A stretch of 56,142 nt of DNA from a virus (Duplodnaviria > Caudoviricetes). The notes beneath the pieces were generated by a model. The model made no database searches. It was not told the DNA's origin and saw only the letters and a list, made by a program, of their open reading frames with translations. Shown piece by piece: positions 1 through 48,000 of the stretch (position 1 is the stretch's first letter; every line of letters starts with the position of its first letter). The DNA lies in the IMG/VR virus record IMGVR_UViG_3300017910_000401, positions 1 through 56,142 of that record. One strand, given 5' to 3'. Made by a program: the position numbers and the translations under genes.

Positions 1-17
1 AAAAAAATAATTCACCA

Positions 18-1394
18 GTGATAGGTTTTTCGTTTCAGGACTCTGGAAACACGATTGCAGTCAAATGGCGAACCGCAAATGGACAAAAGGATTTTTGGTG
101 GGATAACAACGCAACTAAGCTATGGGGAAGACAAATACACAACGACAGTCTGCCCTCGATAGACAAAACCATTGTCATAACTGAAGGAGAAATAGACCAA
201 TTAAGTATCAAAGAAGCTTTTCGTAATCATTCAAACATAGATGTTTACTCAGTTCCGAATGGAGCACCTAATAAAATCACAGATAGCAAGATAGACCCTA
301 GTGAAGATGGTAGATTCAAGTATGTTTGGGAAGAAAGAGACAAGTTCAGAGACGTAGAAAGGATAATTTTAGCGACAGATTCAGACGAAAACGGACAAAT
401 ACTAGCGGATGAATTGTCTCGTAGATTAAACAAAGCTAGATGCTATCTAGTAGATTACAAAGGATGTAAGGATGCCAATGAATTACTGACTAAAACTGAT
501 AGTCAAACTGTTAGAGAGCAAGTTCTCAATGCTGAACCTGTACCTTTACATGGTCTGAATAGCATTGACCATTACTCAGATGAATTTCAAAACCTTTATG
601 AACAGGGCAAACCAAGAGGAGTCAGCACAGGAATTGCTTCGGTTGATGAGTTATTTACCTTGCAAACAGGCTATCTAAACGTAGTCACAGGCTATCCGGG
701 AGACGGAAAATCAGCATTTATCGACCAAATAGTAGTAAATGTAGCTAAAACTCATGGATGGAAGACTTGTTTTTGTTCTTTTGAGAAACCGCCAACACTT
801 CACAGTGTGCAATTAGCACAATGTTTGGTGGGTAAACCCTTTTTTGAAGGGCAGAATCAACGTATGACACAGGAAGAGAAAGACTTTGCGGAAAATTGGA
901 TTACTGAACATATACTATTTCAAGATTATCAAGATGGTGGATTGCCAACAATTGAAAGCATTTTGGAAAAGGGAGCAAGTGCAGTAATGCGATATGGCAT
1001 AAGAATACTAGTTATAGACCCTTTCAACTTTATACAGACCGATTACAAAGGTTTAGAAACGGATATGGTCAGTGATATGCTCACTAAAGTTCAATTGTTT
1101 TGCAAACAGCATGACGTTTGTTGCTTTTTTGTCTCACATCCTACAAAACCTGCTGAACGTGGTAAAAAACAGATAGTCACAGGGGTTGATATAGCAAAAT
1201 CTATGGCTTGGTTTAGTAAAGCAGATATGGGATTGACAGTCTTTAGAGGAGAAGATAATGTTAGCATCAATGTTTGGAAAGCTAGGTGGGGATGGAGTGC
1301 AAAATGTGGCACAACAAATCTTACTTTTAACCCTGTAAATGGAAGATACAATGAAGCAGAAGAAGTCCAAGACGATTACGATTGGGAGTTCTGA
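18..1394 (+). CDS. Primase-helicase (Toprim plus SF4/DnaB-like helicase; T7 gp4/Twinkle-like), probably 5'-truncated by the window edge
   Basis: Toprim motifs ITEGEIDQLS and ATDSDENG, KDANE; Walker A GYPGDGKS; Walker B LVIDPFN; VSHPTK. The frame is open back to the window start. Confidence 0.9.
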   Translation: MIGFSFQDSGNTIAVKWRTANGQKDFWWDNNATKLWGRQIHNDSLPSIDKTIVITEGEIDQLSIKEAFRNHSNIDVYSVPNGAPNKITDSKIDPSEDGRFKYVWEERDKFRDVERIILATDSDENGQILADELSRRLNKARCYLVDYKGCKDANELLTKTDSQTVREQVLNAEPVPLHGLNSIDHYSDEFQNLYEQGKPRGVSTGIASVDELFTLQTGYLNVVTGYPGDGKSAFIDQIVVNVAKTHGWKTCFCSFEKPPTLHSVQLAQCLVGKPFFEGQNQRMTQEEKDFAENWITEHILFQDYQDGGLPTIESILEKGASAVMRYGIRILVIDPFNFIQTDYKGLETDMVSDMLTKVQLFCKQHDVCCFFVSHPTKPAERGKKQIVTGVDIAKSMAWFSKADMGLTVFRGEDNVSINVWKARWGWSAKCGTTNLTFNPVNGRYNEAEEVQDDYDWEF

Positions 1395-1890
1395 ACAGAA
1401 CCTACATCTTAACGACATAGGCAGTCCAAACTTACACAAAAATCATAAAGTTTGTGTTCGGTCAATCGATGACACCAAGCTAGGCAGAGCCATAGTCCTA
1501 GACCAACACATAATAGACGTTATGTTTCACGAAGACTATCTCAGTGCAAAACAACACAATGTTTGCAATAAATATCTAGGTATTATTTCACGTTCAGGTT
1601 GCTTCGCCAGTGCACCGGGGTTAGAAAAAATATTATTCGCTGGTGAGAGTAATTTCACCAAACCTGTTCCTAAAGCCTGTGTTTTATTAGGAGTTCAAAG
1701 ATTAATTAAGGAAGTTTGCGGTGGCGAAAAAGAAAAAATCTTCTGGAAAATCATGTCTGAGAATCCAAAAAAGGTAAATAGTGTACAGATTCACGTCACT
1801 TTGGAGTGTGCTGATGCCTTGCTAGATTTTTGGTATGTTAATCAGGAGAGTCCTGTATCTTTGTTTCAACAAGCCCTGACAAGCCCTTAG
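1339..1890 (+). CDS. Hypothetical phage protein
   Basis: 183-aa ORF overlapping the helicase stop; no recognised motif. Confidence 0.6.
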   Translation: MEDTMKQKKSKTITIGSSEQNLHLNDIGSPNLHKNHKVCVRSIDDTKLGRAIVLDQHIIDVMFHEDYLSAKQHNVCNKYLGIISRSGCFASAPGLEKILFAGESNFTKPVPKACVLLGVQRLIKEVCGGEKEKIFWKIMSENPKKVNSVQIHVTLECADALLDFWYVNQESPVSLFQQALTSP

Positions 1891-2095
1891 CAGGTTCAGA
1901 TAAACTGCCAGAATAAATCATTTTACCCTCTTCTTCAGCAGTATCTTCTTCTACTTCGAGACCTTTTAGGTCGGCTTCGTTGTGTATCATGTGGATAATT
2001 TGTTTGTTGAGAGAACGACTCTCTTTCTTTGCAAGTGCGTGAGCAAGTTCATAAGTTTCTTGCGAACACCTAATGAATAGATTCTTCATCTTCAA
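1838..2095 (-). CDS. Arc/ribbon-helix-helix-like DNA-binding protein
   Basis: N-terminus KNLFIRCSQETYELAHALAKKESRSLNKQIIHMI fits the RHH beta-strand plus two helices, with the RSLN signature. Confidence 0.7.
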   Translation of the reverse strand: MKMKNLFIRCSQETYELAHALAKKESRSLNKQIIHMIHNEADLKGLEVEEDTAEEEGKMIYSGSLSEPAKGLSGLVETKIQDSPD

Positions 2096-2396
2096 TTTCC
2101 TCGTCTAATTCTTTATAAATAATTACAGGAGATTCCTGTACCTCAGCAATAGCTACTGACTCTCTACCTAACTGATAAAATCTTTTCTTTTCTAATTGAT
2201 TGATAGCCGAGTCCAACATATATTCATTGGCTCTGATGAGTGGGTCATCTAACAATGATATAGCAAAGGTTATGGCATCAACCTCGTTCTTGAATATCCA
2301 AACCAAATGAACCCAATCTGCTTTGCTTTTAGTTGAATTGGGATTGTTAGGCTCAGGAATATCAATCTTATAAGTGTGTCTTACTACTGCAAACAT
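2070..2396 (-). CDS. Hypothetical phage protein, probably leaderless
   Basis: 108-aa ORF; TATAAT ends 7 nt upstream of the ATG and there is no SD. Confidence 0.65.
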   Translation of the reverse strand: MFAVVRHTYKIDIPEPNNPNSTKSKADWVHLVWIFKNEVDAITFAISLLDDPLIRANEYMLDSAINQLEKKRFYQLGRESVAIAEVQESPVIIYKELDEEIEDEESIH

Positions 2397-2435
2397 CTAA
2401 TTATTATAAGCAAAAAGCTATCACATTGAAAGCAA

Positions 2436-2451
2436 TGTTTCATGTGAAACC
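2436..2451. promoter_or_regulatory. parS-like palindrome
   Basis: TGTTTCATGTGAAACC, 14/16 match to the canonical parS TGTTTCACGTGAAACA. Confidence 0.5.
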
Positions 2452-2495
2452 AACACCACAGATTTCCATAGCTCCAAACGGAATCTGTAAAATAT

Positions 2496-2511
2496 TATTC
2501 ACTAGTGAATA
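2496..2511. promoter_or_regulatory. Perfect copy of a recurrent palindromic site, TATTCACTAGTGAATA
   Basis: 16-bp perfect palindrome; about 10 degenerate copies elsewhere in the window. Confidence 0.6.
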
Positions 2512-2582
2512 TAATTACATCTCAGAGCCTCTCTGGATTAATTAAGCTGTCTTGGAGCTTCGTACACCAGTGATAGATTAGG

Positions 2583-2618
2583 TGGACTATCATACTTCTG
2601 TGATGGACTATCACACTT
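2583..2618. repeat. Two 15-bp direct repeats, TGGACTATCAYACTT, with a 21-bp period
   Basis: Copies at 2583-2597 and 2604-2618. Confidence 0.6.
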
Positions 2619-2640
2619 TAGAAAAAAATTTGTGGATTTT

Positions 2641-2817
2641 TGGTCGAGGAGGATAGTAGTGCAGGTGGCTATTTCTCCTGCTTCTGTATACAACCAATCT
2701 TACTATCCCCCTTCGTTATATTGGTCAGGGAGGATAGATAGCTAAATATACAGTAATTCTATCCCCCCTTTCCTATGATATCTAACTTTTAGATATGGAG
2801 GTCTCTGTTAAGAGATT
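2641..2817 (-). ncRNA. Candidate structured small RNA with an anti-SD segment and two related stems ending in GACCA
   Basis: Sigma70-like promoter directly upstream; two 12-bp stems whose mismatches are G-U pairs only on the minus strand; no ORF. Confidence 0.5.
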
Positions 2818-2821
2818 CACT

Positions 2822-2851
2822 ACTCTATCATCAAATGATAGCAAATTGCAA
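2822..2851 (-). promoter_or_regulatory. Sigma70-like promoter for the candidate sRNA
   Basis: -35 TTGCAA, 18-nt spacer, extended -10 TGnTAGAGT. Confidence 0.45.
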
Positions 2852-2854
2852 GAG

Positions 2855-2886
2855 TTATTAACAATTTATCCACAGGTTTATCCACA
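2855..2886 (+). promoter_or_regulatory. DnaA-box cluster
   Basis: Perfect TTATCCACA at 2866-2874 and 2878-2886; degenerate TTATTAACA at 2855-2863; AT-rich DNA follows. Confidence 0.65.
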
Positions 2887-3041
2887 GATTTATTTACTGG
2901 TAAAAAATATTATTAACGCAGTGACATATATAAATTTTTACATTTTCTAGCTGTAAAAAAACACCCACGCTAGAACCCAGTAAATATATATCACTAGTGA
3001 ATATTTTTTTTCTATAAATCCTGGAGCCAGAAATTTCGACC

Positions 3042-3084
3042 AAAAAAAAAGGCGGTAGCTACCTGTAAAAGTAGCTACCGCCTT
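3042..3084 (-). terminator. Rho-independent terminator of the leftward early operon
   Basis: GGCGGTAGCTAC-8 nt loop-GTAGCTACCGCC followed by T9 on the minus strand, just after the stop at 3093. Confidence 0.9.
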
Positions 3085-3092
3085 AATTTTAT

Positions 3093-3842
3093 TTATTCCT
3101 CTTCTGGAATATAAATTATCTCTGATTCTCCACGACCATTAAGATATGCCAAAGCATCGTTCTTATTGATTGTTTTCTCAAAGAGATTTGTATTATGCCT
3201 TTTAGTCACGTTGGATTTGTCTCCTAAGTTGCCATTCATTAGCCACCTATCAGCAAACCAATTCGCCCTATCCTTATCTAGTGTCCAAGAAAACCCTTTA
3301 TCATCCATGCCACCACGAAAGATTGTTATCTCTTCAGGCAAAGAATCAAAAAAGGCTTTCTCTTTTTCATCCATCATTAGATGAGGATTTGCATATTGTT
3401 CTGTTAATAAACTTTTCCAAGAATATTTGTTTTGATATATATTCTCGGAGTCTATCCAAGCAGAAACAATAACATCCCAATATTCCTCATCGGAATCTGG
3501 AATCCACCAATCAGCATAAGCATTTAACAAAGCATCATGCCTGTAAGGTCTTTCATGCAAATAGATAAATCTATGAATATCGTTTTGTTCAATAGCATCT
3601 TGCACTTGAAGAACCTTAGCTTCATATTGCAAGTTGTATTGAGTTATATTCAAAGGATTATCTTCTGACATTGGCACGACAACCAACAAAGGATGATGAA
3701 TCATTTTTCCAAAAGAAGCTTCCTCGATTCTCTCTTTCAAGTCAGCATTCAATTCAACCTTCTTACTGAAGTCAAAATTAGTCATGCTTTCTAAAGAAAA
3801 GAGTTTACCAAGTTGTTCTTGTATTTCTCGCAGTCTATCCAT
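3093..3842 (-). CDS. Putative R-S-E-type ADP-ribosyltransferase-fold protein
   Basis: C-terminal ITIFRG ... GFSWT ... A..FA ... RGESEII resembles the ART catalytic R, S and ExE motifs. Confidence 0.5.
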   Translation of the reverse strand: MDRLREIQEQLGKLFSLESMTNFDFSKKVELNADLKERIEEASFGKMIHHPLLVVVPMSEDNPLNITQYNLQYEAKVLQVQDAIEQNDIHRFIYLHERPYRHDALLNAYADWWIPDSDEEYWDVIVSAWIDSENIYQNKYSWKSLLTEQYANPHLMMDEKEKAFFDSLPEEITIFRGGMDDKGFSWTLDKDRANWFADRWLMNGNLGDKSNVTKRHNTNLFEKTINKNDALAYLNGRGESEIIYIPEEE

Positions 3843-3846
3843 AACT

Positions 3847-4362
3847 CTATTTGATATCTGCTTTTCCGAACCATTTCATATACGTCTTTACGAGAAAATT
3901 CATAAGACGACTTGGATTATTTTTAAATCCAAAAGGCGGATAATAGCCTTTAGGATAAACCCATATATGATATTGGTTAGAAGTGTTTACAAGATGATGA
4001 GAAGGCGGAAATAATTCCACCCCCCATCTTTGCTTACCATCTGGCACTAGGGCATTTTTGATTTCGTATAAATCTTCCCAAGACCTTAGAGGTTTCTTAT
4101 CAAGTCTTTTGATAGATAGATAAGTCATACCTTCGGTCATTTCCCTAGAAAAAACATCGTTGCTTTCATGTACTAAAACTTGATAAGTATCGTTCATAAA
4201 AACAGGAGTTTTATCTTGGTCAGAAATTAATTTTTCCAATAACTTAGAATCAAAATTTATCCCTAGTTGAGTTTTCATAACTTTCTTTAAGTCTTTTACT
4301 CTTTCCTCCATTGGAAGATTGAGAGGATTAAAGTGTGCCTTTTCAAAGTTGTCAATACTCAT
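3847..4362 (-). CDS. Phage protein of unknown function
   Basis: Motif LSIKR...SWEDLYEIKN...VELFP....LVN..NQYHIW, recalled as a widespread phage family. Confidence 0.65.
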   Translation of the reverse strand: MSIDNFEKAHFNPLNLPMEERVKDLKKVMKTQLGINFDSKLLEKLISDQDKTPVFMNDTYQVLVHESNDVFSREMTEGMTYLSIKRLDKKPLRSWEDLYEIKNALVPDGKQRWGVELFPPSHHLVNTSNQYHIWVYPKGYYPPFGFKNNPSRLMNFLVKTYMKWFGKADIK

Positions 4363-4556
4363 GCTTCCTCCATGTTCGGATTATAAGCAACAATATCAAT
4401 CTTATATTTCAAAGTTTTTATTGTTTCCAAGTGGTATTTATTAAAAGTTTTTTGGTCAATTAACTTTGCGAATTTCTTTGCAGTGTTGCAAAAAGGATAG
4501 CAAAGGTCATTACCATAAACATTTTTATAGAATACCTTCATATTTAAATTATTCAT
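4359..4556 (-). CDS. Small hypothetical phage protein
   Basis: 65 aa, KNVYGNDLCYP motif, strong GGAGGT RBS. Confidence 0.75.
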   Translation of the reverse strand: MNNLNMKVFYKNVYGNDLCYPFCNTAKKFAKLIDQKTFNKYHLETIKTLKYKIDIVAYNPNMEEA

Positions 4557-4608
4557 AAGACCTCCATCTTATAAAAATTAGTTTAAAAAAGTTGGCTTGT
4601 AAGCCAAC

Positions 4609-4707
4609 ACCTAGACCAGAACAATCAGGTGAAAATTATTCGCTAGTGAATAATATTTTTTTATCTTGTTCTGGTTTCGATTGAATCTCACAATCTCCTC
4701 AGTAGGT
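4609..4707 (-). ncRNA. Hammerhead ribozyme HH-A (type I), predicted cut GUC between 4614 and 4613
   Basis: ACCUA-CUGAGGA-GAUUG(UGAGAUU)CAAUC-GAAA-CCAGAACAA...UUGUUCUGG-UC/UAGGU; complete core and three stems. Confidence 0.92.
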
Positions 4708-5343
4708 TTAAGTCTCTGTAAAAGTTATAGTTATACCATCACTTACAAGACCAGATACGTTTGCAAAAATACTCATAACAATTGTGTCAATTTCGTACTT
4801 TGCTTCGTAAAGTGTGTCGCATCTAAAATTTTTAGAAAAAGGCACAGCAGTTTCAAAATCATACCAAGCCATTTTGAAATTTGGATAAACGACATAATGT
4901 TTAAGATGATTATTTCTAGCAATAACAAAGTTTCGATAAAGATATTCTTTCCAATCTTTATTTTCTGATACTTTTGCTATTGCCATTTGATTACGAAGAA
5001 ACTCATAAGCTTCAGGAAAATCTTTATAAGCTTTTTGCACTTTGACTTTTGTCTTGTGCCAATCGCTTTCCTTTGGCTCTGCTTTCATTTTGTGATAAAA
5101 ATCTTTAAGACGTTTATTACACTTTTCAAAATCATCCATGAGCATAAGATATCTATGAGTTAGATTACCTTTTGCGATACAAACCTTATATTCAAAATCA
5201 AGTTTATTAAGAATATTTTTAATGGTATGTGACGTTGAATGATAACCGCTTTCATAGTAGCTTCGCATTGAATTAGGACAATTAGGATAACTGTCTAATT
5301 TTGTTTTGCTCATTTCTAAAGCATCTTTCAATAATTTTTCCAT
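4708..5343 (-). CDS. Hypothetical early protein
   Basis: 211 aa with GGAGGT RBS. Confidence 0.75.
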   Translation of the reverse strand: MEKLLKDALEMSKTKLDSYPNCPNSMRSYYESGYHSTSHTIKNILNKLDFEYKVCIAKGNLTHRYLMLMDDFEKCNKRLKDFYHKMKAEPKESDWHKTKVKVQKAYKDFPEAYEFLRNQMAIAKVSENKDWKEYLYRNFVIARNNHLKHYVVYPNFKMAWYDFETAVPFSKNFRCDTLYEAKYEIDTIVMSIFANVSGLVSDGITITFTET

Positions 5344-5370
5344 AAGACCTCCATCTTATAAAAGTTAATT

Positions 5371-5457
5371 AAACTGATTTCGGCTCTTTTGAGCCACCCT
5401 CCTAAAAGGGTACGTTTTCACGTTCATCAGGCAAAACACACATTTTGCTATCAGTTT
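5371..5457 (-). ncRNA. Hammerhead ribozyme HH-B (type III variant with extra hairpins), predicted cut AUA between 5449 and 5448
   Basis: AAACUGAUA/GCAAAA(UGUGUG)UUUUGC-CUGAUGA-[three hairpins]-GAAAUCAGUUU. Confidence 0.75.
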
Positions 5458-5500
5458 TTAAAATTAGACCTCCATACAGGCTCATAGAGGGCAAAACTAA

Positions 5501-5541
5501 TAGCAAGTGATATCTGAGTACCCCTCAAATATCACTCGCTA
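5501..5541 (-). other. 18-bp RNA hairpin after the VWA gene stop
   Basis: UAGCGAGUGAUAUUUGAG-GGGUA-CUCAGAUAUCACUUGCUA, with two G-U pairs on the minus strand. Confidence 0.7.
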
Positions 5542-5552
5542 ATAGAAAGTTT

Positions 5553-6893
5553 TTAGTCGTAGAATCTAGCAGTATCTACATAGACCACCTCGCCAAAGGC
5601 AAGACGTTCTGAATAACTGCTTTTTTCAGTACAACACCAAAACACAGGAACATCAGGCTCAACGTCTTCAGAAACGTCTCCCCAACCATCGGTAAAATAC
5701 ACTAAGGCTTGAACGTCTTCGGCATCATCAGTGTAGTCATTCAACAGATTAAATACAGGGTCAAACTCTGTACCGCCACCGCCACGAACTACTAACTCTA
5801 ATTCATCGCCTGAAGATAAATCATAGTAATCCCACCATTCCCCCTGTCCATTTTTACGAACAGTTGTGTCACAGTAGCAAACTCTGATTTTTTCAAGACC
5901 GCAGTCTTCCGCCATAGCTTGTATCTCAGTAGCAAATTTATTCAATTCGTATTGAGATACAGAACCTGAAGTATCGATTGCAACCGCTAACTCGCCACCT
6001 TGTGGAGACCTAGTTTTACTCGGCAAATTTAAACCTTGCCATGCAAACCTTTTATTCAGTCTCGACCATGAGTAATCGTTAGCAACAGAAGAACGTAAAA
6101 GGTCATTCAATTGTTCTTTCCAATCAATTGAAGTCTCTTTCAATTCTTCCATTCTGCCACCGCAAGACGAATTAGTACCGCTTCCAACAGCTACTTCTAG
6201 CTTGTCAGATAAGGCTACTGCTCTTTGAATCTCAGTTGAGATTTCTTGAATCTCAGCATCACTCAATGGCTTTCCTTCATCGTCAGTTGCATCCAACACC
6301 TCGCCAATAGTTGAAGGAATAGCATCTAAATCAATCGACTCAGATTCTTCGCCATCTTCGTCAGTTTCTTCATCAGAAATATTTCCTTCACTAGTGTCTG
6401 GTATTTCAGAATCTTGCGAATCATCCTCCATGTCCGCATTCTGATTTTGTTCCTTGACTTGCTCGATTGCTTCTTGCAGGTCATCTTCATTTTTAATTAA
6501 ATGTTGATAAACCTTTTCCGCAGACCAACCCTTGTATTTATGGTCAAGTAAACCGCCAAAAGGCAATTCAAAATTTAAATCCCAATACAAGTAAGCATTG
6601 ATAACGTAATCACAAGCAATATTCCATACTTTAGGATGACGTTTACCACGTCTTAGTGGATGTTCATAAACAACGTGCAATGCTTCGTGAACAAGTACAC
6701 CTCGCAATTCTGCTTCGGTTAATTTATCCACGAATGGCGGATAGTAAAAAATGTTTTTACCATCAGTCGCCATCGTATCGCACTTTGATTCTTCACATTC
6801 AACCAAGTCAAGATTAAGGAGCATACTAGCCATGCCAATATGCCCTTTCATCAATTTTGCTCTAGCCTTAATTATGGTTTCAAGAGTTTTCAT
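5553..6893 (-). CDS. DUF2201-type protein: HExxH metallopeptidase-like N-domain plus VWA domain
   Basis: TMATDG, LVHEALH, WNIACDYVIN, MIDAS motif DTSGS, GGGGTEF, YFTDG. The start is probably the ATG at 6893 (RBS GGAGGT upstream) rather than 6908. Confidence 0.88.
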   Translation of the reverse strand: MKTLETIIKARAKLMKGHIGMASMLLNLDLVECEESKCDTMATDGKNIFYYPPFVDKLTEAELRGVLVHEALHVVYEHPLRRGKRHPKVWNIACDYVINAYLYWDLNFELPFGGLLDHKYKGWSAEKVYQHLIKNEDDLQEAIEQVKEQNQNADMEDDSQDSEIPDTSEGNISDEETDEDGEESESIDLDAIPSTIGEVLDATDDEGKPLSDAEIQEISTEIQRAVALSDKLEVAVGSGTNSSCGGRMEELKETSIDWKEQLNDLLRSSVANDYSWSRLNKRFAWQGLNLPSKTRSPQGGELAVAIDTSGSVSQYELNKFATEIQAMAEDCGLEKIRVCYCDTTVRKNGQGEWWDYYDLSSGDELELVVRGGGGTEFDPVFNLLNDYTDDAEDVQALVYFTDGWGDVSEDVEPDVPVFWCCTEKSSYSERLAFGEVVYVDTARFYD

Positions 6894-7866
6894 CTTTCTT
6901 ACCTCCATAAATTTTGTCGAACAAATTGCCTTTCAATCCATCAATAGATTGTTCAAGACCTTCGGCAACCTGTTCACGTTTTTGCTTTCCTAAATCTGTT
7001 TCGTCTCTAAGAGAATCAACAGAATTTATTGTTGCAAGAACAGAACAAAGACTTTGATGAGCATCAGCAATATTTTTATTATTGCCTAGTACATCCTGAT
7101 TAATAGAAGGTAGCACTTCAACCGCTTGTCTCAATTTCTCGAAACTAGATTTGTTGAAGAATCCGCCCTTCTGCTTGTTGTCAGGGTCATACTCTTTGAG
7201 TTTAGTCGCAACGTGATTAACTTGTTCTAGTAAAGCATCAACAGTAATTGTCATTACGTTTTTGATGTTTTTGTTAGACCTGTTAATCGCATCCGCTTCT
7301 ATTCTCTGCCTTAACTTTTCTGAGACGTTAAGTCTAATATCGTTTCCGAAAGTAGGTACAGGAGTCATTTCAAATTGAAACAAAAACTTTTGTCTTAATT
7401 TGTCAAAATCAATGTAGTCACTTTCTCTGAAAGCATCGCCCAAGTTTCTCTTCGCCATTTCCATTTGTTTAGGATAGCTTCTGAGAAAGCCTTGAACTTC
7501 TTTATCCCAAACAAGAGTAGCTTGGTCTACTTCATACTGAAGTCGTTCAAGATTCGTGTTAGGGCAAAGTCGCCATTCCGATAAAACTTTTCCCTCGTCA
7601 TCAAGGGATGAAGAATCATCCCACGGCAAAGTTAAAGGTTTATAAAAGTCATTCCTAAACTTATCTAAAATTTGGCGAAACTCTTTATTGATATTTCGAC
7701 CAAAGATGTGTTTAGAAACACCTAACAATTTATCGTCTGATACTTTCGTATCTTCCGCTAAACCGCTTCTCAATTTCTTATCGACTTTAATGCCTGATGG
7801 ATGTCTTGCAGTAAGACGAACCAACATACAATTTTCCGATAAGGTATTTGTTAATTTTTTATCCAT
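6880..7866 (-). CDS. Helical partner of the AAA/VWA module (possibly DUF3150-like)
   Basis: 328 aa, TLPWDD...WRLCP motif; lies between the AAA and VWA genes. Confidence 0.55.
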   Translation of the reverse strand: MDKKLTNTLSENCMLVRLTARHPSGIKVDKKLRSGLAEDTKVSDDKLLGVSKHIFGRNINKEFRQILDKFRNDFYKPLTLPWDDSSSLDDEGKVLSEWRLCPNTNLERLQYEVDQATLVWDKEVQGFLRSYPKQMEMAKRNLGDAFRESDYIDFDKLRQKFLFQFEMTPVPTFGNDIRLNVSEKLRQRIEADAINRSNKNIKNVMTITVDALLEQVNHVATKLKEYDPDNKQKGGFFNKSSFEKLRQAVEVLPSINQDVLGNNKNIADAHQSLCSVLATINSVDSLRDETDLGKQKREQVAEGLEQSIDGLKGNLFDKIYGGKKDENS

Positions 7867-7896
7867 ATTAGAACCTCCATTCTGTTAGATAAAAGT

Positions 7897-7958: not shown

Positions 7959-8013
7959 TGAGCAAGATGTAATTTTATTCACTAGCGAATAATATTTTTT
8001 TACATCTCGCCCA
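7959..8013 (-). other. Long RNA hairpin after the AAA gene stop, capped by the recurrent palindrome
   Basis: UGGGCGAGAUGUAA pairs with UUACAUCUUGCUCA (14 bp, two G-U pairs on the minus strand). Confidence 0.7.
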
Positions 8014-8027
8014 ATTCAGTTTTCAAC

Positions 8028-9077
8028 CTAGACTTCTAAGTCTTGATTCCTGATTTTAAAATCGGAATAAGTAGAAGTTTCTGCTAAGTCTGGAATTGCT
8101 CCAATCAAAGAACGAACATAGAAAATCGCAAATTCAGGAGTAGGTAATTTCTCAACATAGTTAAGACTATTTTGAAAATAATTAGCTACATTTGGATTAT
8201 CCATTTCCGATTTAAGAATCGAAACTAATGCACAAACTAGAGCATAAGATTTACCGCCCTCATCAATCATTTCTACGTCTTTGCCTTCACAAATATCTTG
8301 AACATTCGGCAAGTCATTTTTCAAAGACAAAAAGGTAAGAAATTCAATCGAAGCAGTCTCGCCAATATCCCCTTCACAAACTAGTTGCAAAATTTCTTTT
8401 GGCGGATTCGTTTTCAATGTATCAGAAAGACGAACCCAAGAACGTGGACTCGGCTGGGGAGTCGTAATTTTTGGGTCAAAGTCGCAAAGGTACTGAGGCT
8501 CATAACTAATGAATCCCAATACGTCAGGACTTACATCATTCTCAGTCGCCCAAGAAATCCAATCGTTAATGTTTTCATCTACATTCAACATTGTGCATCT
8601 GTCATTGACTTGCGTAGGAATTTTATTTGCTCCTGCTCTGTCAGTTGCCCTGTTTCCTGCACAAACAATTTTCCACCCATCAGGCAAAACGTACTCTCCG
8701 ATTTTTCTTTCATAGAGTAATTGTCCGCACACACACATGACCGAAGAATGAGCCTGAGCAAATTCATCAAAAAATAATATGCCCTCGCCACCAATTGGGA
8801 GATTACCTAAGAAGGCTCTCTTTTGTTGGTTATCTTCGTCTATGTAAGGCAAACCGCCTAAATCAACAGTCTCATAAAGTGACAGTCTAAAATCAATAAA
8901 TCCAAACTGTTTTTTAGTTGGATTGATTGAATTAACAATCTCTCTATCTTCTGCAAATTCTTCGGCTAGTTTCCTAACAATTGCACTTTTTCCAATCCCC
9001 GGTTTCCCTTGCAGGTAAGGGGTATTAGAACCCTTTAATATCGATTTCATCGATAATATAGCTTGACTCGGTTTCAT
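8028..9077 (-). CDS. MoxR/AAA_5-like AAA+ ATPase
   Basis: Walker A GKPGIGKS, Walker B LFFDE, AGNR, PSPRSW. Confidence 0.9.
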   Translation of the reverse strand: MKPSQAILSMKSILKGSNTPYLQGKPGIGKSAIVRKLAEEFAEDREIVNSINPTKKQFGFIDFRLSLYETVDLGGLPYIDEDNQQKRAFLGNLPIGGEGILFFDEFAQAHSSVMCVCGQLLYERKIGEYVLPDGWKIVCAGNRATDRAGANKIPTQVNDRCTMLNVDENINDWISWATENDVSPDVLGFISYEPQYLCDFDPKITTPQPSPRSWVRLSDTLKTNPPKEILQLVCEGDIGETASIEFLTFLSLKNDLPNVQDICEGKDVEMIDEGGKSYALVCALVSILKSEMDNPNVANYFQNSLNYVEKLPTPEFAIFYVRSLIGAIPDLAETSTYSDFKIRNQDLEV

Positions 9078-9130
9078 ATAAGACCTCCATCTTTTATACC
9101 AAGTTAGAATTCGTTAGCAGAATTGCTAAC

Positions 9131-9211
9131 ACCTAGAAGCAACCTTTTTACAGGCTAGACTTAAATCTATTTAATGCTTTTCGCTAGAGTTTCACTAGCA
9201 CGTCAGTAGGT
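9131..9211 (-). ncRNA. Hammerhead ribozyme HH-D (type I, A9U core variant), predicted cut UUC between 9136 and 9135
   Basis: ACCUA-CUGACGU-GCUAG(UGAAACU)CUAGC-GAAA-AGCA...UGCU-UC/UAGGU; overlaps the stop codon of the upstream ORF. Confidence 0.8.
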
Positions 9212-9680: not shown

Positions 9681-9743
9681 ACCTAGACCAACCCAAATTA
9701 ATTGAGTTGGTTTCGCCTGAATTTCACAGGCTCTTCAGTAGGT
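9681..9743 (-). ncRNA. Hammerhead ribozyme HH-E (canonical type I), predicted cut GUC between 9686 and 9685
   Basis: ACCUA-CUGAAGA-GCCUG(UGAAAUU)CAGGC-GAAA-CCAACUCAA(UUAAU)UUGGGUUGG-UC/UAGGU. Confidence 0.95.
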
Positions 9744-10049
9744 TTAGAATTGTTGAATAACATATCCTCCGCAATCAGTTTCTAAAACTGTGGTCACATC
9801 TTTTATGCTCTCCAATGTTGAATAAATTGTGCTTGTTCCATTGATTGAATAATCAGCAATCAATTCATCAACATTTTTATATTCCGCATAATCACAACAA
9901 ATGGCAATCACATCTAATTCTAAATTTTCCAATTCAGACAAATGCTCGTACAAAGCCTTTAACCCTTCTCTTGAAAAGTTGTTGGCATATTGTCCTGAGT
10001 TTCCAAATTCATTAATGAATTGATTTTCGTTTAAAGTTTTATATATCAT
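9744..10049 (-). CDS. Hypothetical early phage protein
   Basis: 101 aa, NFSREGLKALYE...ELDVIAICCDYAEY motif, GGAGG RBS. Confidence 0.75.
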   Translation of the reverse strand: MIYKTLNENQFINEFGNSGQYANNFSREGLKALYEHLSELENLELDVIAICCDYAEYKNVDELIADYSINGTSTIYSTLESIKDVTTVLETDCGGYVIQQF

Positions 10050-10093
10050 TTTCTATCCTCCACGATAGTTAGATAAGAGACTTAATTGTCTCT

Positions 10094-10159
10094 CCTCCTG
10101 AGTTTCTTGAATCCAATTAAGGATTCTCATTCAGCACGTTAATTCGTGGACTCTGGAGG
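10094..10159 (-). ncRNA. Hammerhead ribozyme HH-F (type III variant with kissing loops), predicted cut GUC between 10149 and 10148
   Basis: CCUCC-A-GAGUC/CACG(AAUUAA)CGUG-CUGAAUGA-GAAUCC(UUAAUU)GGAUUC-AA-GAAACUC-A-GGAGG. Confidence 0.8.
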
Positions 10160-10408
10160 GAGTCTCCCAATCGCAGTAATTATTCCAAACGTCACTACTA
10201 AACCGCAAAAGGGATTACAGGCTTCATGGCTTATGCTCGACCTGTATTGTTCATCGTACCCTGCACGTTGCAGACCTAGAGAACCCTCACTGTTTTAGGA
10301 CAATCGCTGTGAGCCGACCTGCAACAAATGACACTTTAATTCGCATATTGCATGACGAAAGACCCTTAAAAAAGGGAGGGTCAAAAGTCGCTGTTGTCTG
10401 TCCATGCA
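10160..10408 (-). ncRNA. Structured 5' leader or candidate ncRNA of the early operon
   Basis: No credible ORF on this strand; stems UGCAUG/CAUGCA, GACCCU/AGGGUC, GUUGCAGGUC/GGUCUGCAAC (G-U pairs), CUCAC/GUGAG and UACAGG/CCUGUA. Confidence 0.5.
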
Positions 10409-10411
10409 GTA

Positions 10412-10441
10412 ATTATAAACACAAGACACACCAGAACACAA
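10412..10441 (-). promoter_or_regulatory. Candidate early promoter
   Basis: Perfect -10 TATAAT at 10417-10412; weak -35 TTGTGT at 18-nt spacing. Confidence 0.5.
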
Positions 10442-10514
10442 CATCAAGAGCATATTATTTGATAGCACTTTGTGAGCATAGTATTTATTTCACTAGTGAC
10501 AGATAATATCTTGC

Positions 10515-43198: not shown

Positions 43199-45021
43199 TG
43201 AATTTAGTAGAATTATCTGAAGAATTAGAATTCATGCCAAAAGATGCTTTGATACAATTATCACAAAATCCTAATTCTAATTATCCACCTTATTTGGTTT
43301 TAGCTGAAATACAAAGGCGTACTCAAATGGAAAAAATGTATGCAGCAGCTAGACCTAAACCACAGAATACAGTAGCAGAAGAAGTAGTAACGGATTTTGC
43401 TATGTCTACTCCCAATGCAGGTATATCCATGATGGATGGTTCAGCTCCAACTGAAAGATTCTCCCCTAAGTCCAGCGATATACCTGCTCCAGTATTAATG
43501 CAAACTGCAGCTAGTGGTGGTCTGACTGCCTATGCTAATAAAGGAAAAACTGAAACCACTGGTTCTAAAATAAAAAACTTTTTGACTGCACCTATAAGAG
43601 CTATTTCAGAGTTAGGTAGACTACGATATGAAGCAGGTAGAGATATGTCAAATCAACTTAGAGAGAATGCTTCTATGAGAGCTGACATCAGAAATGACTT
43701 AATAACAAAGTCTTTGCCAGTTATAAAAGGAGAAAAAACCTTAGAAGAATTTAAAAATGAAATGAGAGAACTTTATAATAATGATTTTATTAAAGATGAT
43801 AAGGGTTATAGAAATTCAATTAAAAATTATTATTACAATTTTGAACAAAAATTTCTACCTAGGTTTCAGAAAGAGATAGCAGAAACAGGTAAAATGCCAA
43901 AAGATGTTATAAAGCATTACGATGATTATGAAAATTTTAGAAATAGTAAGCAATACCTAAACAAATTTGATACAGGATATGAAAGACCTGACTTAACATT
44001 ACCATCAAAAGCTGGTGGTGGTATAACAGGTTATCAAAATAGAGGTCAAACTATGATAGAACAGTCTCTATCAAATCCTCAAGAAAGAGGATTTTTTGGT
44101 AAAACTTTTGACTACATAAAAGAAAACCCAGGTACTACAGCATTAAATGTAGCTAGTGCAGGTCTGATGTTTGTACCAGGTATAGGATTAGTATCTTTAG
44201 GTTTGAGAGGACTGCAAGCTGCAAGAGCATTAAACTATGCACAAGGAGCAAAAAAAGCTTACGATGTTGCAAAAAGAGGAACTATAGCTACAGGTAAAGC
44301 ATTAAATCCTAAAGTATTATATTCAAGACCTAATCCTATTTTTAGTAATTTACAACAAGGCACAAGAAGAGTGCTTCAAAAAGATGGAACATATAAAGTT
44401 ATAGATACTGCTACAGGTAAAGCGATAAAACCTAGAGTATTTTCTATGAAAAGAGCAGCACCTACTTCAATAGCTGGAGCAGCAGGTTTGCAAGCAATAA
44501 ATTATATGAATCAAGATGATAAAGTTATTAATCAAATGCCACCTCCTGAAAGAGAATTGTCTGCTGAAGATTTAGAAATTTTACGTTTACAAAATGAAGC
44601 TGCTATGGCAGAAACAGAAACTAAACCTAAAGGATTTGATGACCAAGCTTTAAATTTAATTAGTTTAGGTGGCACAATTATGGGTGCTCGTAATATGTCT
44701 GAATTAGGTCAAGGCTTAACTAGTTTTGCAACTGCTAAACAAGCAGCTAAAGGTGATGAAGCACAACAAGCTTATTACGCAGCTAGTGCAGCCAAAGCTC
44801 AGGCAGAAGTTGAAAATATGCCACTCGATAGAGTTATTTCTAGTATTGAAGCAATAACTGAGCAGCAAGAAGCAGCTTTAGAAAATAATGATACAGAAAC
44901 AGCAACAGCACTTGGATTACAACTACAAATTCTAAATCAAAGAGCTTTAGAATTACAAGGCATAGATGTGCAAACACAAGCTAGTATAGACAAAAACTTA
45001 ATTGCATCTTTTGGAACTTAA
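43198..45021 (+). CDS. Internal virion protein
   Basis: PPYLVLAEIQRR; helical; position in the ejection module. Confidence 0.55.
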   Translation: MNLVELSEELEFMPKDALIQLSQNPNSNYPPYLVLAEIQRRTQMEKMYAAARPKPQNTVAEEVVTDFAMSTPNAGISMMDGSAPTERFSPKSSDIPAPVLMQTAASGGLTAYANKGKTETTGSKIKNFLTAPIRAISELGRLRYEAGRDMSNQLRENASMRADIRNDLITKSLPVIKGEKTLEEFKNEMRELYNNDFIKDDKGYRNSIKNYYYNFEQKFLPRFQKEIAETGKMPKDVIKHYDDYENFRNSKQYLNKFDTGYERPDLTLPSKAGGGITGYQNRGQTMIEQSLSNPQERGFFGKTFDYIKENPGTTALNVASAGLMFVPGIGLVSLGLRGLQAARALNYAQGAKKAYDVAKRGTIATGKALNPKVLYSRPNPIFSNLQQGTRRVLQKDGTYKVIDTATGKAIKPRVFSMKRAAPTSIAGAAGLQAINYMNQDDKVINQMPPPERELSAEDLEILRLQNEAAMAETETKPKGFDDQALNLISLGGTIMGARNMSELGQGLTSFATAKQAAKGDEAQQAYYAASAAKAQAEVENMPLDRVISSIEAITEQQEAALENNDTETATALGLQLQILNQRALELQGIDVQTQASIDKNLIASFGT

Positions 45022-48000
45022 TGGAAAAAATAAATTTACCTGATGGACAGGTAATAAATATACCAGACAATATAGACCCAATAAAAAGGTCTGAATTAGC
45101 TGGTGCTATAAAAAGACAATATGACATAGATATAGATAAAGTATCTATTTTAGATAGAGTTGTAGATGCTCCTAAATCAGTAGCTAGAGGTACTATAAGC
45201 ACAGTAGCTAATGTACCATTGGGTTTGGCATCACTATTTGATATAGGCAACGATAGTGAAGTTGTAAAAGGTTTGCAAGGTTTTCGTGATTATCTTAGAG
45301 AAGATTCTATATTTGCTTCTGACCCATCATTAAGAAATAAATATTCTACTAAACTAGCTGAAGGTTTTGGTTCATTTGGACCATTTTTGGGTGCAGGTTT
45401 AGCAGGTCGTGCTTTAGCTAGGAGAGGTGTAGTAAGTCCTGCAGTAGGTACATTCGGACTACCAGCTGCATTAGCTGTACCAACAGGTATTTCTGAACAA
45501 GTAGACCGATTAGAAATAGCTAGAGATATGGGCGAAGAAGCTAATGCTGGTCAGGAAATATTATCTGAACTTATTGGTGGTGCTATTGGTTTATCTGAAA
45601 TTGCACCAATAGCTGCTTTTCTTAAAAGAGTACCTAAGTCTGCTGCTCGTAATCCTGAAATAAATGCTCGTATAACACAAATAGCTAAAGACTTTACAAC
45701 AGGTTTTGCATTTGAAGGTGCACAAGAATCTATTGCAAGTTTAACTCAAGATTTAGTTGCTAGAGGTTTATACAGTGATACTTTGCCAATTGGAGAAAGT
45801 TTCTTTGATGAGTTAACTATAGGGGGTATTGTTGGTGGTACTGCAAAAGCTGTAATAAATAGTCTTGGTCGTAAACAAGGAATTAAAAGTGAATATGCAG
45901 AAGAAAAAATAAGGCGTGAACAAGAAAATAAAAAAGATTTATTACGAGCTAAAAAATTCCAACAAGCACAAGAACAAGGAACACTTACAGAAGTGCAAGA
46001 TGTACCACAAGTTGTTAAGCCAGAGCTTGTTGTACCTGAAGCAACTCTACCAGAACCTGATTTAACAGTTGTTAGTTTGCCTAACAACACCTTTTCTATT
46101 GTTGATAACAACAATACGACACAACCAATAGTTGAAACTTTTACTAGTGAAGCTGATGCTTTATCTAAAAAAGAAGAGTTACTAACTGACTTTAATAATC
46201 AACGTCTTACCCAAGAATTAAACAAACAATTATATTTACAAGGCAATATAAATAGTGCGACTGCTTTTGAAATAGGGCAATCGTTACTTGACCCTATAGC
46301 AACTACAGTAACGCCTAATGATATTATTGCTTTTAAAACTAAAATATCCGACAAAGCTAAACAAAGTTTTTTAGAAAACAATACAAAACCTCTAACTCTT
46401 GAGGAGGCTAAAAATAATTTAACTAAAAAAGAATTCAATGATTTAGCTAGTTCTTTAGCTAGAGCACAGTTAAAAGCTAATGAAAAAAATGGACAACCAT
46501 CTATAACTGCAGGTAAAGACACCATAAACACTACTCCCAAATATATTAAAGAATTAGCTGAATCTAAAAATATAGATAACTTTAATCCTAATTCACCAGC
46601 TATAGCTCATGCACTAAAAATTTATACAGGCTCTAATGATTTAAAAGGCATGAGTAAAGGTCAAAAAGATTTATTAGTTGCTAGATTACACGCCCTTCCT
46701 AAATTTAATCAAAAACAAGAATTTCCTGATTTTAGACCTAAAGAATATTCTGCTAAAGATATGGCAGATTTTATTTCTAAAATAGACAAAGCTTCATTTA
46801 CTTTAAAAGATGTTGAAAATAATTTTGATGGCGATAAAGGTAAAGCTGCAATGTTTATCAGTCAATTACAAAAAAGTGGCAGAGCAGAGTTTTTAAAAGA
46901 AGAAGGTGCTTATCGAATAAAAGATAATTTTGAGTTTGAAATTGCAAGAAGAGCAGAAGCTTTTGACCAGACACCAGAAGAGTTTGGTGCATCCCTTAGA
47001 GAGCAAGGCACTTTATCTGAAGATGTAATAGCTAAATTAGTAGAAGAAGAAACTGTAAGACAAGAAAAAGTTTTACCTCCAGAAGAAATAGAACCTAAAT
47101 TAATTAACTTTGCTGAAGCTATTGAAGAAGGTAGAACTAATAAGTTTGCTAAAGAAATAAGAAAACAATTAGATAAGTTTGGTCTATCAGATACAGGTGT
47201 GGTTGTAAGTGATGATATTTTATCAACCACAACTCTTAGACAAACTACAGATGGTGTAGCTTTTGACCCTAGAGAAGTTAGAGAAGAAAGAATTGAAGGA
47301 GAATACGATAGAAATACAGACATAATCTTTTTATCTTTGAATGCTGTAAATCCTGATGGTAATGCGACAGATTTTGAAATAGAACAAAGATTAAGAAACA
47401 TAGTTAATCACGAAGTAATTCATGCTTTACGAGCAAAAGATTTATTAACAGAACCAGAATATAACTATTTACGAAAATTAGTTAAACAAAGAAAAGTGCC
47501 TAAAGATTTTGATGAAAATTATGCTAATAGAACTTTTTATGACCGAGCAGTTGATATAAATAGAGGAACAATAGAAGCTCGTAGACAAGCAGGTTTAAAT
47601 ATAAGTGATGAAAGAGCAGAAGAACTCTACATTGAAGAAGCTATAGCAGAAATGTATCGTGCTAAAGATATTGGACCAACCATGCCAAACAAAGTGGATG
47701 GCATCTTTAATAAATTTATAGAGTTTTTTAAAGGCATAGGACAAGCCATGCGTACATCAGGTTATAAAAATGTAGCTAATGTATTTGCTGAAATAGAACA
47801 AGGTCGTGTTGGTCGTAGAGCTAGAGGTGAATTAAGAACCACTAGAGAGCTTGATAGAGGAGCAGCCATAAGTCAGTTACCTCCAGATTTGCAAGCAGAA
47901 AAAGACCGCAGAGATAGAGCTGCTGCTGAAGCACAATTAAAACCAGATGAAATAGAAAGAGGTGCAGTTATAAAAACTGAATTATCACCACAAGAACTTT

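Follow-up and report, generated by a model that had tools for sequence, protein, structure and literature searches.

Our findings highlight a putative small RNA gene in the viral record IMGVR_UViG_3300017910_000401, which comes from an uncultured, tailed marine phage and was analyzed as a complete IMG/VR record (linear, 56,142 nucleotides (nt), estimated to be 95% complete; hereafter the window). The gene lies on the minus strand and, as judged by comparative sequence analysis, represents a new, well-supported family of phage small RNAs. In 31 loci (the window and 30 others, on ~28 uncultured phage contigs) the element occupies one syntenic position and has one architecture, consisting in order of phased DnaA-type boxes, a promoter within a TTGCAnnnTGCAA palindrome, a variable 5' hairpin, an unpaired ACCUCC, a second hairpin and, in 28 of 30 loci but not in the window, an intrinsic terminator. 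The architecture is conserved, the RNA structure covaries, the unpaired core is invariant, and the core with its flanks is complementary to ribosome-binding sites (RBSs) of the phage itself. With moderate confidence, we propose that this RNA pairs with the Shine-Dalgarno (SD) regions of the phage's own minus-strand non-structural, and probably early, genes and lowers their translation.

The initial annotation of this region, made from the sequence of the window alone, is correct in all of its statements about the sequence. The minus-strand promoter that it described (TTGCAA, 18 nt, TGaTAGAGT) is present, with the -35 hexamer inside a palindrome-like TTGCAAtttGCTA, and the CCUCC that it placed unpaired between two hairpins is reproduced by the minimum free energy fold of the minus strand over 2640-2830 (-57.2 kcal/mol, z = -3.17), which contains hairpins 1 and 2 of Table 1; the plus-strand fold is slightly weaker (z = -2.60). 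Hairpin 2 holds AAGUUAG, a second conserved motif, which is complementary to CUAACUU-type leaders upstream of RBSs. The element sits in a 696-nt gap (2397-3092) downstream of the terminator that closes the upstream minus-strand block and therefore requires a promoter of its own. Its ACCTCC is the sole non-coding copy on the minus strand of the window, and ATGGAGGTCT occurs five times in the window versus 0.10 expected (0 of 100 shuffles reached five), with one copy on the plus strand (2795-2804) and four on the minus strand (4558, 5345, 5466 and 9081). Where relatives have the terminator hairpin, the window has two hairpins, A and B, of which B is a window-specific duplicate of A; they are related by the direct repeat D4 with 81-nt spacing, and their arms, GGGGGAUAG and CUAUCCUCC, pair through G-U on the minus strand, whereas A-C mismatches would result on the plus strand. 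Neither is adjacent to a U-run, the nearest U7 run being at 2628..2622. The initial annotation also rightly recognized that a later arm complements the RBS of the open reading frame (ORF) 9744-10049: UCUAUCCUCC (2742..2733, minus strand) complements GGAGGAUAGA, as do the 3' arms of both hairpins, in which the anti-SD is sequestered in a stem. Hairpins A and B could possibly form a second module, and they may equally be the by-product of a decayed, duplicated terminator.

Table 1. Positions in the window of the RNA element, its predicted targets and the surrounding genes.
Feature	Position	Strand	Details
Three DnaA-box-like 9-mers	2855..2886	-	head-to-tail; TGTGGATAA 2886..2878; TGTGGATAA 2874..2866; TGTTAATAA 2863..2855
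Sigma-70-like promoter	2822..2851	-	-35 TTGCAA 2851..2846; 18-nt spacer; TG 2830-2829; -10 TAGAGT 2827..2822
Hairpin 1 (5' hairpin UCUCU-UAAC-AGAGA)	2802..2815	-	from folding; predicted RNA 5' end near 2815-2817
Anti-RBS segment AGACCUCCAU	2795..2804	-	CCUCC 2801..2797 unpaired between hairpins 1 and 2
Hairpin 2, AUAUCUAA-AAG-UUAGAUAU	2778..2796	-	holds AAGUUAG motif
Hairpin A (GGGGGGAUAGA ... UCUAUCCUCCC)	2723..2773	-	at the place of the relatives' terminator hairpin; no U-run
Hairpin B (GGGGGAUAGUA ... UACUAUCCUCC)	2645..2715	-	window-specific duplicate of hairpin A
108-amino-acid (aa) gene, conserved downstream neighbor	2070..2408	-	TATAAT 2408..2403, 6 nt, ATG 2396; no SD
Strong intrinsic terminator closing the upstream minus-strand block	3049..3084	-	
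Predicted target, RBS AUGGAGGUCU of gene 4359..4556	4558..4567	-	hairpin AUAAGAU-GGAG-GUCUUAU with AUG in 3' arm; duplex -26.8 kcal/mol, two helices
Predicted target, RBS of gene 4708..5343	5345..5354	-	-26.4 kcal/mol
Fourth AUGGAGGUCU copy, not an RBS	5466..5475	-	hairpin in intergenic region upstream of 4708..5343; conserved in locus L008
Predicted target, RBS UGGAGGU of gene 6880..7866	7873..7879	-	AUCUAAC upstream; -24.1 kcal/mol
Predicted target, RBS of MoxR-like ATPase gene 8028..9077	9081..9090	-	-24.3 kcal/mol
RBS GGAGGAUAGA of gene 9744..10049	10052..10061	-	complements 3' arm of hairpin A; duplex with 5' part of the RNA -19.0 kcal/mol
Primase/helicase genes	3..1890	+	
Non-structural block	10049 down to 3093	-	small ORFs, MoxR-like ATPase, DUF2201/VWA protein
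Structural block	10.5 to 52.5 kb	+	terminase, portal, tail fibre, 2505-aa protein

Relatives of the element were recovered by protein and pattern searches. A search with the upstream protein (gene 3093..3842) retrieved six loci. The two close loci that reach the gap, L008 and L010, carry a 38-nt block (hairpin 1-CCUCC-hairpin 2) that is 100% identical to that of the window within DNA that is 80-90% identical, and past hairpin 2 the DNA is replaced. A search of viral contigs with the core pattern gave 22 stretches, 19 of them with the whole architecture, which together with the window make up 17 distinct versions; a pattern for the promoter palindrome added 14 more divergent loci, for which the presence of at least one DnaA box was a selection criterion. 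Scanning for the DnaA-box pattern matched at least 120 stretches and, among the 114 new loci listed, yielded one new member (L077) and one false match. The pattern ACCTCCAT-N6-16-AGTTAG matched at least 113 stretches of viral contigs, and none of the 129 loci examined from it (L132-L260) had the architecture, among the matches listed. When prokaryotic species, each represented by a single genome, were scanned with the pattern, 34 matches appeared, none with the architecture (boxes or promoter), and hence no host or prophage lead emerged. Across the family, ACCUCC is invariant (31 of 31 loci). In all 30 loci tested, ACCTCC lies 34-151 nt downstream of the palindrome TTGCRnTnTGC(A/T)ATC, and in 28 of these a T-run of at least six follows 47-85 nt after it, the exceptions being the window and L010. 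A -35/-10 pair stands at the same position in the 31 loci, as assessed by consensus and conservation, and in the relatives reads TTGCRT, a 17-nt spacer and TATATT, TATAGT or TACAGT; their terminator takes the form GGGGUAGG ... CCUAUCCC followed by a U-run. The neighborhood is constant as well, comprising genes for the ATPase, a 328-aa protein and the DUF2201/VWA protein, variable small genes, the element and, on the same strand, the 108-aa gene, beyond which lie convergent genes for a 183-aa protein and the primase/helicase.

In each of the 17 first-found versions, the predicted fold runs from a 5' hairpin through 5-7 unpaired nt that include CCUCC to a second hairpin and then a terminator hairpin. 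The predicted RNA length is 85-103 nt in 16 of them, and hairpin 1, with 5 to 12 bp, is wholly different from group to group in both sequence and length. When 19 members were aligned to a covariance model built from five, standard pairs filled 99.1% of pair cells, compared with 73.9% in shuffles (0 of 500 as high) and 36-46% with slid partners; the alignment, being fitted to the model, favors the structure, and the margin is large. Changes on both sides occur in 22 of 28 pairs, to which helix 1 contributes 8 of its 9, helix 2 contributes 3 of its 7 and the terminator 11 of its 12, and G-U pairs, which would be lost on the opposite strand, are numerous. A second model (R2) detects the remaining members, namely L291 (E value 7e-7), L008 (1.1e-3), L010 (1.8e-3), L311 and L312 (2e-3), L289, L309 and L344 (~3e-3) and L263 (9.5e-3). 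No Rfam family matches 2600-2860 of the window at E up to 1 and none reaches its gathering score in 10 relatives, the best match to the L013 copy having an E of 0.79 and 18.6 bits against a gathering score of 90. Full-text searches of an open-access library found no description of such an RNA. As a separate observation, the relatives contain weak second matches to the family models (E 0.01-0.9) on the same strand at a constant distance of ~300-390 nt upstream of the RNA gene, for example L020 4769-4843, L017 3467-3547 and L013 4951-5032; the counterpart in the window is the block terminator (3043-3114), and these matches are probably terminator-driven false positives.

The complementarity of the unpaired segment points to the phage's own gene starts. 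The initial annotation had reported a perfect 10-nt complement at four sites, and AGACCUCCAU is indeed the exact complement of AUGGAGGUCU in four copies on minus-strand mRNAs; three of these are RBSs, reading AAGATGGAGGTCTTATG (genes 4359..4556, 4708..5343 and 8028..9077), and the role of an RBS falls away for the copy at 5466-5475. Duplexes were computed between the first 40 nt of the RNA and all 51 gene starts of the window, and the five best all belong to minus-strand non-structural genes, with a mean of -18.7 for the genes of this block (n=10) versus -8.7 for the rest (n=41; Mann-Whitney p=2.4e-5). The best duplexes consist of two helices, one between the anti-SD and AUGGAGGUCU and the other between the AAAAGUUAG region and a CUAAUUUUUAU-type leader. 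When ACCUCC was held fixed and its flanks were shuffled, none of 1000 shuffles reached the observed top-3 mean of -26.8 (null -17.9, sd 2.3), which indicates that the flanks add complementarity beyond the CCUCC core. That the SDs of these genes are looped out, as had been suggested, is confirmed by folding, which places GGAG in a hairpin loop in seven of nine minus-strand RBSs (one marginal), and CTAAC occurs in four of nine upstream windows against a background of 0.0009 per nt. The plus-strand late genes have AAGGAGG-type SDs or none, and not U-GGAGG-U. Thus, in the targeted class, GGAGG is preceded by a U, which complements the A after CCUCC in the RNA, and in the late class it is preceded by an A; the U after CCUCC in the 16S ribosomal RNA (rRNA) tail fits the A before GGAGG of the late class, within what is a short motif.

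This comparative evidence, namely a covarying RNA gene with promoter and terminator, the best predicted targets, the flanks and the looped GGAG, supports the antisense reading first put forward for the window, in which an unpaired anti-SD meets the looped-out SDs of the phage's own minus-strand genes. In the mechanism that we propose, host RNA polymerase would start the RNA near 2815 on the minus strand, from a promoter of the sigma-70 type directly adjoining the array of phased DnaA boxes. The transcript is predicted to fold into the 5' hairpin, a short single-stranded ACCUCC(A) and the second hairpin, followed in the relatives by the intrinsic terminator, in place of which the window has its two GGGGGAUAG/CUAUCCUCC hairpins. 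The ACCUCC and its flanks, aided by AAGUUAG, would base-pair in trans with U-GGAGG-U SDs that hairpin loops present and that CUAAC often precedes. In this way, the RNA would compete with the 16S rRNA tail, exclude 30S subunits and lower translation of the gene block. The stability of the mRNAs would probably be lowered too, and the duplexes could perhaps serve as double-stranded ribonuclease substrates.

The match between RNA flanks and RBSs can be followed across the family, where 29 loci with enough sequence carry 13 core versions (nnnACCUCCnnn). Contiguous pairing is longer with RBSs of the same phage than with those of other groups (7.33 vs 6.92 bp, sd 0.116, p=0.0003), as is the fraction with at least 9 bp (0.24 vs 0.14, p=0.002), and the energy version of the same test gives p=0.0001. 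RNAs ending in CCUCCAU go with AT before GGAGG and those ending in CCUCCAA with TT (34:21 vs 6:19, Fisher p=0.003), AGACCUCC goes with GGAGGTCT (9/42 vs 1/108, Fisher p=4e-5), and UAACCUCC goes with GGAGGTTA (8/72 vs 0/78, Fisher p=0.002). In other groups, the RBS cassette CUAACUAAUGGAGGUUAG matches UAACCUCCAU of the RNA, and CUAACUA matches the RNA loop UAGUUAG.

Several observations weigh against our proposal, and we acknowledge them here together. The flank p values ignore phylogeny: a tree of the DUF2201/VWA protein gives two independent contrasts for the 3' flank and one for the 5' flank, and the RBS trait goes in the same direction in about one contrast and shows no difference in the other. 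These contrasts are too few for a test of co-evolution between RNA and RBS, so that shared ancestry may account for the flank association. In two lineages, L077 and L306, the RBSs would be matched better by a different 3' flank than the one carried by the RNA, and by duplex energy a phage's own small RNA ranks only 1st to 9th of 14, making specificity beyond the SD core modest. The duplex energies ignore accessibility, and the label early was given to the target genes from gene content only. The promoter of the window is a weak consensus match (8 of 12 hexamer positions plus the TG), which a promoter scan that needs 9 of 12 omits in favor of an overlapping candidate, and promoter-like sites are not in excess in the region (11 found vs 15.3 expected); it is credible because it is conserved in relatives, not because of its score. 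With the family model the window copy reaches only 18.5 bits (E 0.4), owing to a 3' part that is divergent and has no U-run, and its membership of the family is based on the identity of its 5' half to L008 and L010 together with synteny. Lastly, the RNA libraries that hold part of the region are labeled marine or seawater, no other RNA library having any, and two marine metatranscriptome runs contained 6% of the sampled words; these runs give only contigs, none over the RNA locus and all without strand or end information. Over 1900-5700 the contigs cover 3172-3507 (95-100% identity, within gene 3093..3842) and 42 nt at 5459-5500, and those over 3172-3507 establish presence in RNA libraries, with transcription not implied.

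An alternative, which we consider unlikely and which corresponds to the decoy suggested in the initial annotation, is that the RNA acts mainly on the host, either as a mimic of the anti-SD tail that sequesters strong host SDs or by titrating a factor that recognizes the anti-SD, the matches to phage RBSs being a by-product. What is invariant is precisely ACCUCC, the generic anti-SD core, every version of the small RNA binds the RBS set of every phage fairly well, in keeping with the ranks just given, and the leaderless neighbor described below would escape if SD-dependent initiation were blocked in general. However, the flanks add complementarity to the phage's own leaders, as the flank shuffles show, and differ between phage clades in step with their RBSs, and a general decoy would also strike the phage's own late AAGGAGG-type SDs.

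Further upstream, the DnaA-type boxes invite a reading that concerns replication rather than translation. The boxes of the window start 35, 23 and 12 nt upstream of the -35 hexamer, and two to four such 9-mers stand at -12, -23, -35 and sometimes -47 in 31 of 31 loci, in an 11-12-bp phase; box presence was a selection criterion for the 14 loci of the promoter scan and not for the 17 core-found versions. Three of the five perfect TTATCCACA boxes of the window lie within 1990-2886 (we take TTATNCACA to be the DnaA box consensus), GATAGTC direct repeats and palindromes occur between the RNA gene and the next gene, and the primase/helicase gene is found, convergent and 1-3 kb off, in all loci that reach that far. 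Boxes, promoter and repeat-rich DNA might thus constitute a phage replication origin at which the transcript activates or primes replication, as in origins that combine a promoter with an unwinding element. We regard this as quite unlikely to be the sole role of the RNA, since compensatory changes and G-U pairs show selection on RNA secondary structure, ACCUCC is invariant and unpaired, and a strong terminator frees the RNA in 28 of 30 loci, none of which is expected of a primer or R-loop RNA. In addition, GC skew follows gene orientation only and carries no origin signal. Origin-associated and translational roles may coexist. Returning to pairing with the phage's own SDs, we would tentatively extend it to a larger scheme, itself improbable as a whole, in which the RNA mimics the 16S anti-SD tail and forms the core of a replication-coupled switch. 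Host DnaA bound to the boxes would gate the promoter; phage genomes would titrate DnaA, and the RNA would accumulate; RBSs with U-GGAGG-U in a hairpin loop, those of early genes and possibly strong host SDs, would be silenced; the adjacent leaderless gene and the late AAGGAGG genes would still be translated; and an early RBS cassette, copied in inverted orientation, would have given rise to the RNA gene itself. The part given to DnaA in the timing of such a switch is speculation.

The downstream 108-aa gene is leaderless in 22 of 22 loci, with TATAAT or TACAAT followed after 6-8 nt by ATG and no SD. Its product is 46-93% identical between loci, above its neighbors, and has an acidic C-terminal tail ending in ..SIH; it matches no Pfam or PHROG family, its atlas matches are only viral hypothetical clusters, and its AlphaFold model (predicted local distance difference test score 77) has no match in the PDB at E <=0.001. 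The RNA gene and this gene are always adjacent and on the same strand, and no U-run adjoins the hairpin that follows the second stem in the window or in its two closest relatives, so that read-through towards 2396 is possible and the element might be a cis-acting leader or attenuator of the 108-aa gene instead of a free small RNA. Such a role is very unlikely, given the T-run terminator in 28 of 30 loci and the gene's own conserved TATAAT, which in all 22 loci stands 6-8 nt ahead of the ATG; with this promoter the 108-aa mRNA would start leaderless and offer no SD for an anti-SD leader to mask. For the same reason, the gene would be immune to the RNA.

The initial annotation had offered as its alternative an orphan RBS on the plus strand, and this we reject as extremely improbable, whether as an orphan or decayed RBS or as a small gene: the plus strand does read ATGGAGGTCT like a phage RBS, with a 51-codon ORF (2795..2950) from an overlapping ATG, and some distant relatives have ATG 8-11 nt after the plus-strand GGAGGT, but in the window no ATG, GTG or TTG follows GGAGG at 3-13 nt, no plus-strand ORF is conserved across the 31 loci (the overlapping-ATG ORF has 51, 52 and 35 codons in three close relatives and 4-23 elsewhere; downstream-start ORFs have 2-29 codons in some distant members and are not homologous), and promoter, terminator and G-U pairs all indicate the minus strand. 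This plus-strand pattern of ATG and short ORFs is compatible with an RBS and its start codon having been copied in inverted orientation to yield the RNA gene.

In lytic phages, the timed shut-off of early genes is mostly known as the work of proteins such as RegB, RegA and anti-sigma factors. If our proposal is true, a conserved, anti-SD-bearing RNA aimed at a whole class of RBSs would represent an RNA solution to early shut-off, and it would join the small number of phage small-RNA families that have been defined from uncultured marine viruses. The compact module of DnaA boxes, small RNA and leaderless gene would link replication status with SD-dependent and leaderless initiation, and its 13 core versions constitute natural sequence variants. 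Unpaired C-rich or anti-RBS segments that lie between or in hairpins and pair with the G-rich SDs of several mRNAs are familiar from the RsaE/RoxS-type C-rich small RNAs of Firmicutes and from sar of phage P22. RsaE/RoxS are chromosomal small RNAs and sar is a cis-antisense RNA, and no Rfam model of either matched the element. Another relevant comparison is C4, the antisense RNA of phages P1 and P7, whose pairing involves two sites, a'/b'. Encoded in immI, C4 is described as a small RNA from the same strand as its targets, whose exposed segments pair around the RBS and block expression (PMC12197685). The likeness is a structural parallel, both RNAs being phage-encoded with exposed segments that pair near RBSs, without homology of sequence or structure, in line with the lack of an Rfam match at the window locus (E up to 1) or at gathering score in relatives. 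C4 controls one operon (icd/ant) for temperate-phage immunity and is processed from a precursor, whereas the element has its own promoter and terminator, a generic anti-SD core and several predicted target RBSs in a gene block. The functional parallel is with T4, where RegB cleaves the GGAG of early SDs and leaves all late and most middle mRNAs intact (PMC3014915); RegB and RegA resemble the element, in the role proposed for it, in that a phage factor inactivates many of the phage's own early mRNAs at their translation-initiation regions. RegB and RegA are proteins, whereas the effector proposed here would be a base-pairing RNA, and no regB or regA homologue was seen, no search aimed at them having been made. 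The lambda RNA LPR1/PreS is a phage-encoded, trans-acting, base-pairing small RNA of the lytic cycle that is reported to regulate host genes and to enhance dnaN translation (bioRxiv 10.1101/2024.10.31.621285). The element differs in that it is predicted to pair with RBSs of its own phage and to repress, and the two have no homology.

With respect to the record as a whole, DNA 2300-3200 has no match in phage records, and a search of these records with the ATPase protein found relatives that are all <32% identical, such that there is no cultured close relative among the phage records searched. A tRNA scan of the window found none, and signs of lysogeny are absent in the parts of the phages seen. 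At the end of the structural block, the plus-strand ORF of 2505 aa (45021-52538) matches just two PHROGs of unknown function, over its last ~650 residues. The divergent gene blocks are separated by a 465-nt non-coding gap (10050-10514), in which a G+C-richer segment of ~300 nt (~10090-10400, minus strand) precedes the first minus-strand gene. The gap contains no ORF, lacks an Rfam match at E up to 1 and may represent a structured leader or a further RNA. The GATAGTC direct repeats of the window (TGGACTATCA, plus strand, 21-nt spacing) occupy 2583-2618, between the RNA gene and the 108-aa gene, and at the equivalent positions the relatives have AAGATAGTC-N7-AAGATAGTC and then a palindrome GTTTCAnnTGAAAC; GATAG also occurs in the terminator stems and in the promoter spacer of the 108-aa gene and may be a protein-binding motif. 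Another palindrome, TATTCACTAGTGAATA (0-3 mismatches), recurs intergenically in the minus-strand block at 2496-2511, 2988-3003, 4637-4652 and 7976-7991, with nine matches versus 0.85 expected and a further TCACTAGTGA just upstream of 10515, and might act as an operator or promoter element or form an RNA stem. Finally, elements resembling hammerhead ribozymes lie directly after the stop codons of minus-strand ORFs at 9681-9763, 4590-4707 and ~9110-9211. The first matches the Rfam model RAGATH-1-hammerhead with 35.5 bits (gathering score 56.3; E 0.00017 on 301 nt) and has the core CUGAAGAG ... CGAAAC ... GUC with stem I ACCUA/UAGGU. Its motif ACCTACTGAnGnG recurs at 4695-4707 and 9199-9211; by eye, the copy ending at 4707 has a complete core and a long stem III insertion, inside which the 4637 copy of the palindrome lies, and the core deviates in the copy ending at 9211. 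Should these elements be active, they would cleave polycistronic RNA immediately upstream of RBSs that are predicted targets of the small RNA.

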